Positions 42,474 to 47,329 of a stretch of DNA of 64,000 bases are shown piece by piece. The notes below the pieces were generated by a model. That model ran no database searches. It had not been told where the DNA came from and saw only the letters and a list, made by a program, of their open reading frames with translations. The position numbers and the translations under genes are program-made. Origin of the DNA: a virus; the IMG/VR virus record IMGVR_UViG_3300043446_002688; one strand, 5' to 3'. Each line of letters starts with the position of its first letter. The stretch's first letter is position 1.

Positions 42474-43037
42474 ATGAAACTAAACCTTGGATCCGGTTCA
42501 AAAAGAATTCCCGGTTATTTAAATATTGATAATGATGCTGGTTCAAAACCAGATTTTGTTATCGACTTAGAAAAAGATAAACTACCATTTGAAGATAGTT
42601 CTGTGGACAGTATTATTGCTCATCACATACTAGAACACCTGGGTGATGGGTTTTTTCATTGTGTCAAGGAACTATACCGTGTGTGTAAACACGGCACAAC
42701 GATTGATGTTAGAGTTCCACATCCTAGACACGACACATTCTTAATAGACCCCTCTCATAAAAGACCTGTATATCCACACACATTGGATATGTTCTCTAAA
42801 GAACGTAACCTAAGAGATATTGCCGCAGGTGGATGTGAAACACCTATTGGTTTAATCAATAATGTTGACATGCGTGTTTTAAATTTTTCTCCTGTTTTGG
42901 ATGAATATTGGCAAAAACAATTTCAACAAATGACCGAAGAACAGTGTGAACATGCAGCAAGGTCTTTTAATAATGTTATCAATGAATATCATATACAATG
43001 GGTAGTTTATAAAGATGAATCCGTTATCGACCGCTGA
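42474..43037 (+). CDS. Class I SAM-dependent methyltransferase (type 11-like)
   Basis: Motif I KLNLGSGSKR, DL...LPFEDSSVDSIIAHHILEHL and VRVPH...DPSH. Confidence 0.85.
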   Translation: MKLNLGSGSKRIPGYLNIDNDAGSKPDFVIDLEKDKLPFEDSSVDSIIAHHILEHLGDGFFHCVKELYRVCKHGTTIDVRVPHPRHDTFLIDPSHKRPVYPHTLDMFSKERNLRDIAAGGCETPIGLINNVDMRVLNFSPVLDEYWQKQFQQMTEEQCEHAARSFNNVINEYHIQWVVYKDESVIDR

Positions 43038-44334
43038 ATTTTTTATTAAAATTAAACAAAGTGAGAAAGCTAAAATAGTTCTAGACCTTCTTAAACCATA
43101 TGCCACCGGTTTGGGTGAAATGGACCAACTAGGTAAATTATATGCCGAGATTAGAGAGTTCAATGATACACTAGAACTGGCACAAAAAATGTATGCATTG
43201 GTGACCAACGATGATGCCAGATTTGATGCAAGAGTTAATATCATTCGTGCATATCTAAACCTTAACAAGCCAAAAGAAGCATTGGTTTATATCGGTATTA
43301 ACGAAAAGGAAAGACCAAATGACCATCCAAATCAAATGGATAAGGCAATGGCATATTTCTTACTTGACAGAAAAGATGAAGGTGAAAAGATACTGAGAAA
43401 CATTTTAACCGAGCCGCACACAGATGATATTGATTTTAGAGTAAACTTTAATCTAGGTACATATGACTTACGTAATGGAAATTTCAAAGAAGGTTTGAGG
43501 CATGTGTTACTAGATGGTAGAAAATTAAACATCTGGGAATCATTCAACTTTCCAAAAAATCAACTATGGGAAGGCACACCACAACCGGGTAAAACAATCG
43601 TGCTTTGTGCCGAAGGTGGTATTGGTGACGAAATCATTTCAGTTAGATTTATGAAACACTTTAAAGATGTTGGAATGAATCCTATTTGGTTTACAAATAG
43701 AAAAGATATTGCAAGCATTTTCAATCGTTGTGGTTTTGAAACGGTAACAAATCTTAAAGAAATATCATATGATTGGTTATGGACATATTCTATGCCAAGC
43801 CCAACTTACTTGGATTTAGAAGAAGATGATTTATGGTACGGCACATATCTGAAACCATTAAACGTTTCACCTAAATTACCAAACACTGGCAAAAAGAAAA
43901 TTGGCATCAAGTGTATGGGTAATCCAAAGTATGACCAAGACTTACATAGAACTATTCCATTTGAAGAATTGATTGATAGTATTCCGGAAGATTATGAAAT
44001 TTATTCTTTTCACATAGATGAAGATTTTAGTCATCCTAGAGTTATACAATTAAAAGATAAAATTAAAACCTGGGACGATACACTTGATTACATCAATCAA
44101 ATGGATATTGTGGTTTCTAGTTGTACATCATTGATACATGCAGCCGGTGCAATTGGAAAACAATCAGTTGTTATTATTCCAATTCTAACATATTACACTT
44201 GGGCAAAACCAGAGTATCACACCAAATGGTATGGTGATAATCTGACAATCTTCAGGCAAAGTGAGTATGATAATTGGAAAGCACCATTACTTGAATTGAA
44301 TGATTATTTGAAGAATGAAAATACAAACAATTAA
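43015..44334 (+). CDS. TPR-repeat protein fused to a GT-B (GT9-like) glycosyltransferase domain
   Basis: Helical TPR-like N-half, then LWEGTPQPGKTIVLCAEGGIGDEIISVRF, IGIKCMGNP and WDDTLDYINQMDIVVSSCTSLIHAAGAIGK. These match the EQG.GD / W.G.P / D.V.T.DT...HLAGA.G motifs of TPR-glycosyltransferases. Confidence 0.8.
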   Translation: MNPLSTAEFFIKIKQSEKAKIVLDLLKPYATGLGEMDQLGKLYAEIREFNDTLELAQKMYALVTNDDARFDARVNIIRAYLNLNKPKEALVYIGINEKERPNDHPNQMDKAMAYFLLDRKDEGEKILRNILTEPHTDDIDFRVNFNLGTYDLRNGNFKEGLRHVLLDGRKLNIWESFNFPKNQLWEGTPQPGKTIVLCAEGGIGDEIISVRFMKHFKDVGMNPIWFTNRKDIASIFNRCGFETVTNLKEISYDWLWTYSMPSPTYLDLEEDDLWYGTYLKPLNVSPKLPNTGKKKIGIKCMGNPKYDQDLHRTIPFEELIDSIPEDYEIYSFHIDEDFSHPRVIQLKDKIKTWDDTLDYINQMDIVVSSCTSLIHAAGAIGKQSVVIIPILTYYTWAKPEYHTKWYGDNLTIFRQSEYDNWKAPLLELNDYLKNENTNN

Positions 44335-44668
44335 TATAAATCTATCTTCCATAAAATCTGAAGAGCCGGAAGAAATTGTGCCGTGTGGCACCTGTACACT
44401 TTGTTGTGAAAAATTATCACCATTTCTATCACCGGAAGAAGTTGCTTCAGGATTATATCCATTGAGTTTAATAAATCCAACAATAGAACAAAAACAAATT
44501 AATCCAGATATCGGACCCGTTGTCGTTTTATACAGAAAGAAAGAAGGTGGATGTGGAATGTTTATTGACGGCAAATGTTCGATATATGAATACAGACCTA
44601 AAGCTTGCAGACAATTTGATTGTCGCAAAGGACACCACCCAACTATACCCAACATGATTGACAAATGA
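44315..44668 (+). CDS. YkgJ/FliB-like CxxCxxCC cysteine-cluster (Zn/Fe-S) protein
   Basis: CGTCTLCC ... CGMFIDGKCSIYEYRPKACRQFDC. Confidence 0.85.
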   Translation: MKIQTININLSSIKSEEPEEIVPCGTCTLCCEKLSPFLSPEEVASGLYPLSLINPTIEQKQINPDIGPVVVLYRKKEGGCGMFIDGKCSIYEYRPKACRQFDCRKGHHPTIPNMIDK

Positions 44669-45450
44669 AAACATTACATTTTTTATCAGGATTACCAAGA
44701 TCCGGATCAACATTACTGGCGAGTATACTAAACCAAAACCCACAGGTATATGTAACACCCACAAGTCCTATGTTGAATGTGACAGTGAAGATGCAGGACG
44801 CATGGAGAGAAGATCCGACAGTCAAAGCAAACTACTTTGAGGAACAAGCACGCAATATTACCAAAGCAGTTCTTCCTGCTTTTTGGCAGCACAGACCAGA
44901 ACCCATTATCATAGATAAAGGTAGAGGTTGGGCAAAGAATATGTTAACAGCCAATGCGTTGTTTGAAAAGAAAATCAAAGTCATTGTAATGGAACGAGAC
45001 TTACCCAGTATTATGGCTAGTTGGTTAACTATTATCAGAAAACAAAAAGAATGTTACTTAGACGAAACCATTATGCGTAAAGGTTTTCCGCCAACCGATG
45101 ATAACCGCATGGCAGAGATGTGGTTTGATATGGTCAAAGACTGCATGGAAGGTACATATCAAATTAAAAAAGAAGTTCCTGACCAAATAGTGGTGGTGAC
45201 ATATGATGATTTGATGAATGATGCCAGAACACAACTACAAAGAATTGAAGATTTTTTAGAGTTACCAAAATTCAATTATGACTTTGAAAACATCATCAAC
45301 GATACCGTAGATGACGATTTGGTGGCCTGGGGTTTTGATGGGTTACACACCATCAGACCTAAGTTGGAAAAAACCGCAAAAGATCCAAGAATTATTTTGG
45401 GTGACGAACTATACAATAGATTTGTGGAATTAGAAAAACAATATGTATAA
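44665..45450 (+). CDS. PAPS-dependent sulfotransferase (Sulfotransfer_3-like)
   Basis: 5'-PSB loop FLSGLPRSGSTLLASIL; IIDKGRGW; 3'-PB motif MERDLPSIMAS; YDDLM..A...L..I.DFL. Confidence 0.85.
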   Translation: MKTLHFLSGLPRSGSTLLASILNQNPQVYVTPTSPMLNVTVKMQDAWREDPTVKANYFEEQARNITKAVLPAFWQHRPEPIIIDKGRGWAKNMLTANALFEKKIKVIVMERDLPSIMASWLTIIRKQKECYLDETIMRKGFPPTDDNRMAEMWFDMVKDCMEGTYQIKKEVPDQIVVVTYDDLMNDARTQLQRIEDFLELPKFNYDFENIINDTVDDDLVAWGFDGLHTIRPKLEKTAKDPRIILGDELYNRFVELEKQYV

Positions 45451-46336
45451 TGTATTAAATTTTATTCACACATCAAACTTTTACAATGAAGAACAAGTTA
45501 AAGGATTGAACTCAATAGTAAATACTTTAGTGTATGCACCTACTGAATTTGGTAGTGTTAATACAGGTTTTAATTATATTCAACCAGATGCAATCAAAAC
45601 ATTCAGTGAAGTATTAAATACAAAAGTAACAATCAGTGAAGAATCCGGTTACTTTTACAAGCCAAATACAGGAATTAGATACAATACTTTCACAAATTAC
45701 ACCGAGTGGAAATTTGTTGTTGCAATTCAACCAACAATCTTTACGATGTTTTACCACAAAACTGGTGTCACTTCTGCTCTACAAAATTATAATTTTAATT
45801 ACAATAATCTTTTTGAGTGGGAATACCAGACACAGATATTAATGGAACCAGGTCAAGGATTATTTTATAGGCCATGGATGTTTCATGCCTTCAGTGAGCC
45901 AACAATCATTCAGTCGTTTGATATAACAGAAAATCCAACACCACTATCAAATACCATTTTAGTTATGGGTGAAAAAGGTTCCGGAAAAACCACTTTCAGT
46001 AAAAAATTAGCAGACAGACTGAAGGCCACATATATACATGGTGAAACGATAAACGAAATGTTTAACGATACCGATACATCCATAGAAGGTGAAAACAGAC
46101 AGGCCGAACGATTGAAAAAGTTGGCAGTGTTGGCACCAACAGAGTTTACGGTTATAGATTTCAAATGTGAACGTTTATCATCACGTGATTACTTATCACC
46201 CAATTTTGTGGTTTGGATGAATACCGTGGAAATAAAGTCGGACACCTTTGAAATACCTAAAAGAGCAAATGTGGTATATGATTCTTTCGATATTAATATG
46301 GATAAATTTATTGACAAAATGATGGAGAAAAAATGA
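45443..46336 (+). CDS. Fusion of a DUF6445/2OG-Fe(II)-like DSBH domain and a degenerate APS-kinase-like P-loop domain
   Basis: N-half EWKFVVAIQ...FYHKTG...EWEY...PGQGLFYRPWMFHA. C-half ILVMGEKGSGKTTF aligns by eye with the kinase half of the next gene. Confidence 0.6.
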   Translation: MYNVLNFIHTSNFYNEEQVKGLNSIVNTLVYAPTEFGSVNTGFNYIQPDAIKTFSEVLNTKVTISEESGYFYKPNTGIRYNTFTNYTEWKFVVAIQPTIFTMFYHKTGVTSALQNYNFNYNNLFEWEYQTQILMEPGQGLFYRPWMFHAFSEPTIIQSFDITENPTPLSNTILVMGEKGSGKTTFSKKLADRLKATYIHGETINEMFNDTDTSIEGENRQAERLKKLAVLAPTEFTVIDFKCERLSSRDYLSPNFVVWMNTVEIKSDTFEIPKRANVVYDSFDINMDKFIDKMMEKK

Positions 46337-47127
46337 CACAACGAATTTTAATTATGGGATTGCCAGGTTCTGGTAAAACATACCTAGCACAATATGTACT
46401 GGATCATTTACAATCAGCCAACAAGAAAGTTGGTTGGTTGAATGCTGATGATGTACGCAAAAAATATAATGACTGGGACTTCAGTACAGAAGGAAGAATC
46501 AGGCAAAGTCACCGCATGAGAGAACTGGCAGACTCCATGACTGATATGGATTATGTCATCTGTGATTTTGTGGCACCTTTGGTTGAAATGCGTAACAACT
46601 TCAAAGCAGACTGGACTGTGTGGGTTGACACTATCGAAAAGGGGAGATTTGAAGATACCAACAAGGCTTTTATTCCACCAGAGGTATATGATTTTAGAAT
46701 CACGGAACAGAACAGTGAAAAATGGAGTGAATTTATTGCACACCACATCTTAGGAAACTTCCGTAGACCAGTATTTGACTGGCAAAAAGAAACGGTACAA
46801 ATGTTAGGTCGTTGGCAACCATGGCATGCTGGTCACCGTGCTTTGTTTGAGCGTGCAATTCAAAAGACAGGTCAGGTCGTAATACAGATTAGAGACTGTC
46901 AAGGTTGGCAAGGATCAAATCCTTTTGCAATCGAACAGGTCAAACAATATATCAGACGAGACTTGGACCCTATTTACCAGGGAAAATATGAAATTCAGGT
47001 TGTGCCAAATATTGTAAACATTACCTATGGACGTGATGTGGGATATAAGATTGAACAAGAGGTATTTGATGATAAGACACATGAAATCTCTGCTACAAAA
47101 ATTCGTAAATCAATGGGCCTTAAATAA
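46333..47127 (+). CDS. APS-kinase-like domain fused to a HIGH-superfamily nucleotidyltransferase (candidate minimal PAPS synthase)
   Basis: GLPGSGKT P-loop, WLNADDVR, DWDFSTEGRIRQ and ICDFVAP (CysC-like). Then GRWQPWHAGH (46807-46836), YGRDVG (GRD at 47029-47037) and ISATKIR. Confidence 0.7.
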   Translation: MTQRILIMGLPGSGKTYLAQYVLDHLQSANKKVGWLNADDVRKKYNDWDFSTEGRIRQSHRMRELADSMTDMDYVICDFVAPLVEMRNNFKADWTVWVDTIEKGRFEDTNKAFIPPEVYDFRITEQNSEKWSEFIAHHILGNFRRPVFDWQKETVQMLGRWQPWHAGHRALFERAIQKTGQVVIQIRDCQGWQGSNPFAIEQVKQYIRRDLDPIYQGKYEIQVVPNIVNITYGRDVGYKIEQEVFDDKTHEISATKIRKSMGLK

Positions 47128-47329
47128 ATCTGAAACTGCAACCAGAAGCTTTGTAAAGGCATATAGTTACAGGTTCTGTGGTACATTTACCACGATGTTA
47201 ATTTCTTATGCTTTTACTGGCGAATGGATAGTTAGTCTGAGTATAGGTGCCACAGAAATGGTTGTAAAACCGTTTATCTACTGGTGTCACGAAAGAGTGT
47301 GGAATGGCATAGGATGGGGTCGAATATAA
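47081..47329 (+). CDS. DUF2061 family small membrane protein
   Basis: ETATRSFVKAYSYR...TMLISYAFTG...SIGATEMVVKPFIYWCHERVWNGIGWG is the DUF2061 signature. The nearest in-frame ATG is 47081, inside the upstream gene. Confidence 0.75.
   Translation: MKSLLQKFVNQWALNKSETATRSFVKAYSYRFCGTFTTMLISYAFTGEWIVSLSIGATEMVVKPFIYWCHERVWNGIGWGRI

Follow-up and report, generated by a model that had tools for sequence, protein, structure and literature searches.

3′-Phosphoadenosine 5′-phosphosulfate (PAPS) is the universal sulfate donor. Sulfate activation has a central place in the sulfur cycle, and to our knowledge nature solves it with only two kinds of enzyme, Sat and CysD/N. The virus record IMGVR_UViG_3300043446_002688 from IMG/VR, analysed here as a stretch of 64,000 nucleotides (the window), raises the question of whether a phage can make PAPS for itself. 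On its plus strand, positions 46333–47127 encode a 264-amino acid (aa) protein that joins a short domain resembling adenosine 5′-phosphosulfate (APS) kinase to a miniature HIGH-type nucleotidyltransferase (NT), and a sulfotransferase gene lies two genes upstream. The original prediction was that this protein could be a stripped-down PAPS synthase placed beside the enzyme that consumes its product. Through fusions to CysC, operons in SAR86 bacteria and a gap in the SAR86 sulfate activation pathway, this is the best-supported reading of the locus, and we give a minimal bifunctional PAPS synthase a probability of roughly 0.6. The argument builds on what can be read directly, namely the architecture of the protein, the ancestry of both domains, their folds, conserved residues, fusions and gene-context statistics; the two catalytic activities are predicted from comparative genomics (fusion, operon, pathway gap).

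The 264-aa open reading frame (ORF) is a real, conserved two-domain gene, and a chance ORF is excluded. Its ATG start and the TGA stop of the preceding ORF share bases (ggagaaaaaATGA), and a GGAG Shine-Dalgarno sequence lies ahead of the start. The motifs originally quoted are all present, both in the kinase half (GLPGSGKT, residues 9–16; LNADDVR, 36–42; DFSTEGR, 49–55; DFVAP, 78–82) and in the NT domain (GRWQPWHAGH, 159–168; YGRDVG, 232–237; ISATKIR, 252–258), and the gene is supported by Pfam, PHROG and AlphaFold2 (AF2). PHROG 10255 (‘kinase’) matches over the full length (4e-50). The 264-aa protein has more than 8000 metagenomic matches, with an identity of at least 82% among the 120 matches listed, and clustering at 50% gives 2194 matching representatives. 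The AF2 model has a mean confidence (pLDDT) of 93.5 for the whole protein and 93.7 for the C-terminal domain alone. The adjoining ORF at 44665–45450 (plus strand, 261 aa), proposed to be a sulfotransferase, matches Sulfotransfer_3 (4.5e-18) and Sulfotransfer_1 (4.3e-12) and contains a 5′-phosphosulfate-binding (PSB) loop, GLPRSGSTLL, and the RD..S 3′-phosphate-binding motif. Judged by these matches and motifs it is a genuine sulfotransferase of the PAPS-dependent type and the presumed consumer of the product.

The N-terminal domain (residues 1–146; 46333–46770, plus strand) is a P-loop kinase with a shortened lid and the motif residues K15, D39, R42, F50, R55, Q58 and F79–P82. Pfam APS_kinase matches residues 5–92 with 44.5 bits (cutoff 21.1), covering only profile positions 5–94 of 152, and the TIGR00455 equivalog cutoff is missed (36.2 versus 138.7 bits). 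The closest solved relatives by sequence are APS kinases (2yvu, 1.9e-6; PAPSS1, ~1e-3). When the full model was compared with the PDB using Foldseek, the top ~45 matches were all APS kinases (7yq1, 4bzp, PAPSS1 and others), with target TM-scores of 0.6–0.76, and the first protein of another kind, a gluconate kinase, appeared at rank 45. Across 49 aligned members with both domains, K15 and R42 never vary, and conservation is at least 90% at D39, F50, R55 and Q58. HMMER alignments with 2yvu and 2gks place N37-A-D39-x-x-R42, F50-S, G-R55-x-x-Q58 and F79-V-A-P82 on the LDGDxxR, GFS, DRxxN and FISP motifs. Fold, Walker A motif and the DGD..R/F/R/N-or-Q positions are thereby common to the phage kinase and canonical CysC (PF01583/TIGR00455; 7yq1, 4bzp, 2yvu). 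The two differ in length (146 versus ~175–200 aa), in the motifs, where the first Asp of LDGD has become Asn and the canonical Asn has become Gln, and in the lid helix, which is shortened in the phage domain, most of the lid region (profile positions 95–152) being unmatched. Taken together, these features mark the domain as a trimmed APS kinase that is probably still functional.

The C-terminal domain (residues 149–264; 46777–47124, plus strand) is a minimal HIGH NT. Pfam CTP_transf_like matches residues 159–187 (22.6 bits, cutoff 21). Among PDB sequences, the domain on its own matches a NadM-type nicotinamide mononucleotide (NMN) adenylyltransferase (NMNAT), 2qjt, at 1.4e-5; a profile of 15 C-domain sequences finds the same protein at 2.2e-10, with 1f9a at 7.4e-10 and the M. 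thermoautotrophicum NMNAT at ~1e-6. The original prediction had described the domain as Sat-type and offered a NadM-type enzyme as the alternative. For the ancestry of the domain it is the alternative that holds: by sequence comparison it belongs to the NadM/NMNAT lineage. No ATP sulfurylase was detected among PDB sequences at E ≤ 10, by single sequence or by profile, and PF01747 (Sat) has no match in the domain. The argument from Sat homology was rejected on these grounds. Of the motifs proposed to be Sat-like, the HxxH pair (H165, H168) is invariant; in the ‘GRD’ loop R234 is kept, but conservation does not extend to the Asp. Position D235 of the YGRDVGY loop varies between K, G, N and E, and the loop has no HAG as in the GRDHAG of Sat. 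Family-wide, G159, R160, Q162, H165, H168, G233, R234, G237 and R258 are invariant and R187 is near-invariant. The aligned NadM sequences contain no equivalent of R187 or R234, and this pair is predicted to form, probably, a small-anion site.

The NT is also unusually compact. DSSP resolves three strands and five helices in its 116 aa, and it has neither the PUA-like domain nor the ~200-aa catalytic domain of Sat. NadM alignments span only C-domain residues ~4–77. Relative to 1f9a, the domain is short of ~25 residues (strands 3–4) and of ~35 C-terminal residues, C-domain residues 72–87 corresponding to 1f9a 70–110, and its scores lie far under the NMNAT equivalog cutoffs (TIGR01527, 27.5 versus 181.2; PRK01153, 28.7 versus 127). 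The absence of these NMNAT residues is consistent with a second substrate much smaller than NMN; the missing segment presumably holds the residues that contact nicotinamide in archaeal NMNAT structures. Comparison of folds gave Z-scores of 10.7 for phosphopantetheine adenylyltransferase (PPAT), 10.4–9.9 for NadM and 9.3 for NadR, and the Foldseek ranking was similar. Among ATP sulfurylases, the Thermus Sat 1v47 scored highest (Z 9.1, root mean square deviation 2.7 Å, 111 residues aligned), with PPAT and NMNAT above it, and other ATP sulfurylase structures reach only 6.0–6.4. Fold therefore does not tell these families apart, and the models point to a likeness to the Sat fold at the superfamily level only.

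How might two such domains cooperate? In the scheme that we favour, the NT would act as an ATP sulfurylase, converting ATP and, as the presumed second substrate, sulfate to APS and pyrophosphate. ATP would be held by the HxGH and ISATxIR motifs, and the small anion probably by R187 and R234. The short kinase would then phosphorylate the 3′-OH of APS to yield PAPS, drawing the unfavourable first step forward. Such a pull of the kinase on the sulfurylase step would explain the constant fusion or translational coupling of the two activities. PAPS could finally be spent by the sulfotransferase two genes upstream on a putative acceptor, free of host sulfate activation.

Much of the evidence for this scheme comes from bacteria. 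A scan of species-representative genomes with a C-domain profile detected 481 relatives, mostly in SAR86, which is among the most abundant marine bacterial groups. The SAR86 system consists of two overlapping genes, one for a 136-aa kinase and one for a 124–130-aa NT, which share 54% and 59% identity with the respective halves of the phage protein. Five SAR86 genomes, including the complete chromosomes CP097973 and OX044367, carry one to four strong Sulfotransfer_3 genes each (140–160 bits). In these five genomes Sat was found in none (0/5), the CysD/CysH family likewise in none (0/5; the control for this search matched 14/14 reference genomes), and the short kinase was the only APS_kinase match over the cutoff. 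A search for AprA in SAR86 returned nothing over the cutoff, with a control that matched no reference genome. From this gene content, the pair would be the only visible PAPS route in sulfotransferase-bearing SAR86 genomes without Sat, CysD or CysC. In the literature that we searched, we found no description of this family or of a SAR86 sulfation pathway.

For counts across the SAR86 order, 121 genomes were sampled evenly. Of these, 54 carry the NT and 60 carry Sulfotransfer_3; Sat was detected in one genome and strong CysD in two, both of them NT-negative. NT and sulfotransferase occur together in 51 genomes, the NT alone in 3, the sulfotransferase alone in 9 and neither in 58, an odds ratio of ~110 (Fisher p 6e-21, uncorrected for phylogeny and genome incompleteness). 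Among the 54 NT-positive genomes, 21 have the Sulfotransfer_3 gene immediately upstream of the pair, at a distance of 560–750 bp to the NT that the kinase gene fills. One such operon, in genome G319, was read directly: a sulfotransferase of 363 aa with the motifs GLPRSGTTFL and RDP..S is followed after a 14-bp gap by a 136-aa kinase, which overlaps a 130-aa NT by 8 bp. A 318-aa gene (L269:3965-4921) starts 4 bp past the NT stop in the same genome and may be part of the same operon; inspected by eye, its product looks like a D-isomer-specific 2-hydroxyacid dehydrogenase. As a separate observation, in G371, a CysD-positive genome without the mini-NT, the sole Sulfotransfer_3 match (G371:C1:93035-93668) is broken by two in-frame stops (one TAG, one TAA).

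Gene fusions also connect the NT with APS kinases. In the metagenomic protein P0208, a mini-NT (residues 7–118) precedes a complete canonical CysC (PF01583, 212 bits, profile positions 2–151). Chromosomal copies of this NT-CysC fusion are found in the single-cell genome of an OCS116 alphaproteobacterium (219.5 bits, profile positions 1–152) and in a gammaproteobacterial metagenome-assembled genome. The mini-NT of these fusions is 44–51% identical to the phage NT, and their CysC parts score 212–220 bits over the full profile. Another protein, P0218, has the reverse of the phage order, with the NT ahead of the short kinase, and in SAR116/Puniceispirillales a stand-alone NT is followed, 4.4–4.7 kb downstream and on the same strand, by a canonical CysC. 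Two kinds of APS kinase thus go with the NT, in four arrangements, a pattern expected if the enzymes catalyse successive steps of one pathway. Elsewhere the mini-NT is rare, occurring in one of 300 sampled gammaproteobacteria. Five other NT-carrying lineages all lack Sat, and four of the five lack the CysD/CysH family (PAPS_reduct).

A number of observations weigh against a PAPS synthase. The NadM ancestry of the C-domain, the failure to detect any ATP sulfurylase among PDB sequences, and Z-scores that are slightly higher for PPAT and NMNAT (10.7–9.9) than for the best ATP sulfurylase and well above those of the others have been described above, as has the lack of correction in the co-occurrence statistic. 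Some carriers also have a conventional sulfurylase: SAR86 genome G313 carries Sat, and the gammaproteobacterium G002 has CysD and CysNC beside its NT-CysC. SAR11 (Pelagibacteraceae) genomes carry the fused gene, with Sat in 2/5 carriers and a sulfotransferase in only 2/5, which makes the argument from a sulfurylase gap equivocal in that group. Coexistence with known sulfurylases weakens a strict displacement argument, although a sulfation route could well run alongside distinct assimilatory or dissimilatory ones. The short kinase has other fusion partners as well, a PF00483 sugar-phosphate NTP_transferase in P0235 and GDS(L)/SGNH-like domains in P0142, P0204 and P0234, and these fit a more generic kinase-plus-NT logic. 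In phages, the context is mixed. Among 80 IMG/VR loci with orthologs 66–87% identical, ~75% have no clear sulfotransferase within 10 kb (~25% have one), and an 86%-identical ortholog sits among PhoH, TctC, DnaJ and ClpB genes. Cultured Xylella, Stenotrophomonas and Xanthomonas phages carry full-length copies (~40% identical), and no member of PF13469, PF00685 or PF09037 was found in Sano, Bacata or DLP_6.

These points leave room for other functions. One explanation, which we regard as rather unlikely, would confine the role in sulfate activation to the kinase half (APS to PAPS): the NT would activate an acceptor or a small phosphate compound, or regulate as a nucleotide-binding module, and APS would come from host Sat or CysDN. 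The carriers with conventional sulfurylases (G002, G313, 2/5 SAR11) and the P0235 fusion fit such an arrangement, as do 11 of the 80 phage loci, in which a separate CTP_transf_like gene lies directly upstream of the kinase-NT ortholog and places two HIGH nucleotidyltransferases side by side (for example L025:9363-9830, 156 aa, 8e-11). However, SAR86 genomes with the pair and sulfotransferases show no Sat, CysD or AprA as a supply of APS (the AprA control having matched no reference genome), and the association of the NT with both kinds of APS kinase speaks for a joint pathway.

The remaining two explanations give the NT a different product. A scheme modelled on CoA synthesis, in which ADP-X formed by the NT would receive a phosphate from the kinase at its 3′-OH to give another 3′-phosphorylated adenylate, draws on PPAT ranking first among the structures similar to the C-domain, on database annotations that name some orthologs phosphopantetheine adenylyltransferase, and on the NT-then-3′-kinase logic common to PAPS and CoA synthesis. 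We consider it improbable, as the kinase matches APS kinases and not CoaE, several lineages have a canonical CysC in place of the short kinase, and the operon context with sulfotransferases points specifically to PAPS. NAD salvage would instead pair a NadM-like NMN adenylyltransferase with a nucleoside or nucleotide kinase, much as NadR does in the opposite order, and might replenish NAD+ in the infected cell. Profile matches of the C-domain to NadM/NMNAT (2e-10 to 1e-6) and the common GRxQPxHxGH and NPF motifs are in its favour, and a NADAR-domain gene lies immediately upstream in Xylella phages Sano and Bacata. It is nevertheless very improbable given the score against the NMNAT equivalog cutoff (27.5 versus 181.2 bits), an alignment that ends after ~77 residues with ~60 residues missing, and a kinase that is structurally an APS kinase, unlike the NadR/Nrk-type ribosylnicotinamide kinases. 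The fusions of the NT to canonical CysC argue against it too, as does the presence of the gene in 54/121 SAR86-order genomes, where it tracks sulfotransferases and has no housekeeping pattern; its neighbourhood in the window, SAR86 or OCS116 showed no NadV, Nudix or further NAD genes.

A minimal PAPS synthase would have recognisable counterparts. Metazoan PAPSS1/2 (1x6v, 1xjq) have, like the phage protein, an N-terminal APS kinase, homologous to the phage domain, and a sulfurylase at the C-terminus, which for the phage protein is the proposed function. PAPSS differs in its size of ~620 aa and in its Sat-type domain (PUA-like plus ~200-aa catalytic), whereas the phage protein has a second domain of 116 aa with NadM ancestry and lacks most of the kinase lid. 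The coupling of sulfurylase and APS kinase is comparable in the Sat-CysC fusions of bacteria and fungi, such as that of Aquifex aeolicus (2gks), and in CysD/CysN(C), and the order in P0208 and OCS116 mimics Sat-CysC; the phage NT is not a relative of Sat (PF01747) or of the PP-loop ATPase CysD (PF01507) and has no GTPase partner. Its closest sequence relatives, the NadM NMNATs (M. jannaschii 1f9a; F. tularensis NadM-Nudix 2qjt), have the GRxQPxHxGH, NPF and ISxTxIR-like motifs in common with it. Compared with these, the phage NT is ~60 residues shorter, its similarity stops after strand 3, and it has its own R187 and R234 with a YGRxVGY loop, in a sulfation context.

With odds that we judge only a little better than even, the findings extend to a wider proposal. 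The NadM-derived NT of 110–130 residues would be a third, hitherto unrecognised type of ATP sulfurylase with no orthology to Sat or CysD/N. Together with the short APS kinase it would form the sole sulfate activator of SAR86, and it would also occur in further marine bacteria of the streamlined kind, SAR116, OCS116 and some SAR11; T4-like and siphovirus phages would have captured the fused form as a portable PAPS synthase for phage-directed sulfation. If this is correct, sulfate activation has a third and far smaller solution, and an annotation gap in SAR86, sulfotransferases without a visible PAPS source, would be filled. The inference of sulfur metabolism from marine metagenomes would change accordingly. 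Phages would hold a self-sufficient sulfation module of PAPS synthase and sulfotransferase, which could modify virion or host-surface molecules, and a single-chain PAPS generator of 264 residues would be of practical interest for enzymatic sulfation.

The window belongs to a lake-type, T4-like myovirus, its terminase sharing only ~56% identity with those of cyanomyoviruses, and the gene lies on an island between neck genes and RCC1-repeat fibre-region genes. Co-occurrence with sulfotransferases across phages, suggested earlier as a check, favours the PAPS reading, though the two genes are not always linked. Clustering of ORFs in the 80 loci makes the sulfotransferase the commonest neighbour family (21/80, the next most frequent reaching at most 15), and a homolog of the window sulfotransferase lies within 10 kb in 20/80; this amounts to only about a quarter of the loci. 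Only 10 of 50,697 phage records match the window sulfotransferase. The upstream part of the island (42474–44668, plus strand) encodes a methyltransferase, a TPR and glycosyltransferase-like protein and a CxxCxxCC protein, which accompany the sulfotransferase in ~12/80 loci; it provides context and is not needed for PAPS synthesis as proposed here.

Between the sulfotransferase and the 264-aa ORF lies a 297-aa paralog (45443–46336, plus strand), translationally coupled to the latter and composed of an N-terminal domain and a divergent version of the short kinase. It matches phrog_10255 over residues 170–287 (4.9e-14) and keeps a Walker A motif (GEKGSGKT). In an alignment made by eye, its equivalents of R42, F50 and R55 are N, T and E, which makes it unlikely to bind APS. 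Its 165-aa N-terminal domain has no Pfam match, and a true paralog of this gene stands beside the ortholog in only ~3/80 loci. Downstream, on the same strand, the small membrane protein DUF2061 (47027–47329; PF09834, 2.8e-17) overlaps the end of the 264-aa gene; its true start is probably a later ATG, at 47069 or 47081. It is a recurrent partner, following the kinase-NT gene in 17/80 loci (L027, L024, L048 and others), mostly abutting the stop and often overlapping it. It might serve as a membrane anchor or in the handling of sulfate or PAPS. A search for longer, fused forms of DUF2061 found none.

In the cultured phages that carry the gene, the neighbours are a NADAR protein and small proteins of unknown function. 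Sano gp34 (L001:5565-6005) is the NADAR-domain protein (6e-26), and the neighbours annotated as ‘cysteine dioxygenase’ and ‘MazG’ at the Sano loci have no supporting Pfam match. Sano gp33 (L001:4969-5553, 195 aa), which begins with SLPRSRSAW, reaches 20.7 bits for Sulfotransfer_4 against a cutoff of 22.8. Domains of ~200 aa that open with PSB-loop-like motifs are also fused to the short kinase in P0181, P0206 and P0202. Pfam matches of such ~200-aa proteins, fused or adjacent to the kinase, are sub-threshold (Sulfotransfer_3 0.086 and 3.8e-4, Stf0 0.13), hhalign comparison of the P0181/P0206 domain, clusters c12 and c18 and Sano gp33 with sulfotransferases gave probabilities of 10–59% over the PSB-loop region only, and a scan of viral contigs with the N-domain of P0181 found nothing. 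We counted neither gp33 nor these domains as evidence.

Two further gene families recur near the system. A DoxX-family membrane protein, which would be a second recurrent small membrane partner, adjoins it in a SAR86 chromosome (L252:7604-8014) and at the kinase fusion P0206 (L013:92-565). Genes for 2-oxoglutarate-Fe(II) oxygenases are found nearby in bacteria and in phage DLP_6 (L098:3307-4872; the 5.6-kb contig of P0208; L002:4471-5022), and a logic of hydroxylation followed by sulfation is conceivable.

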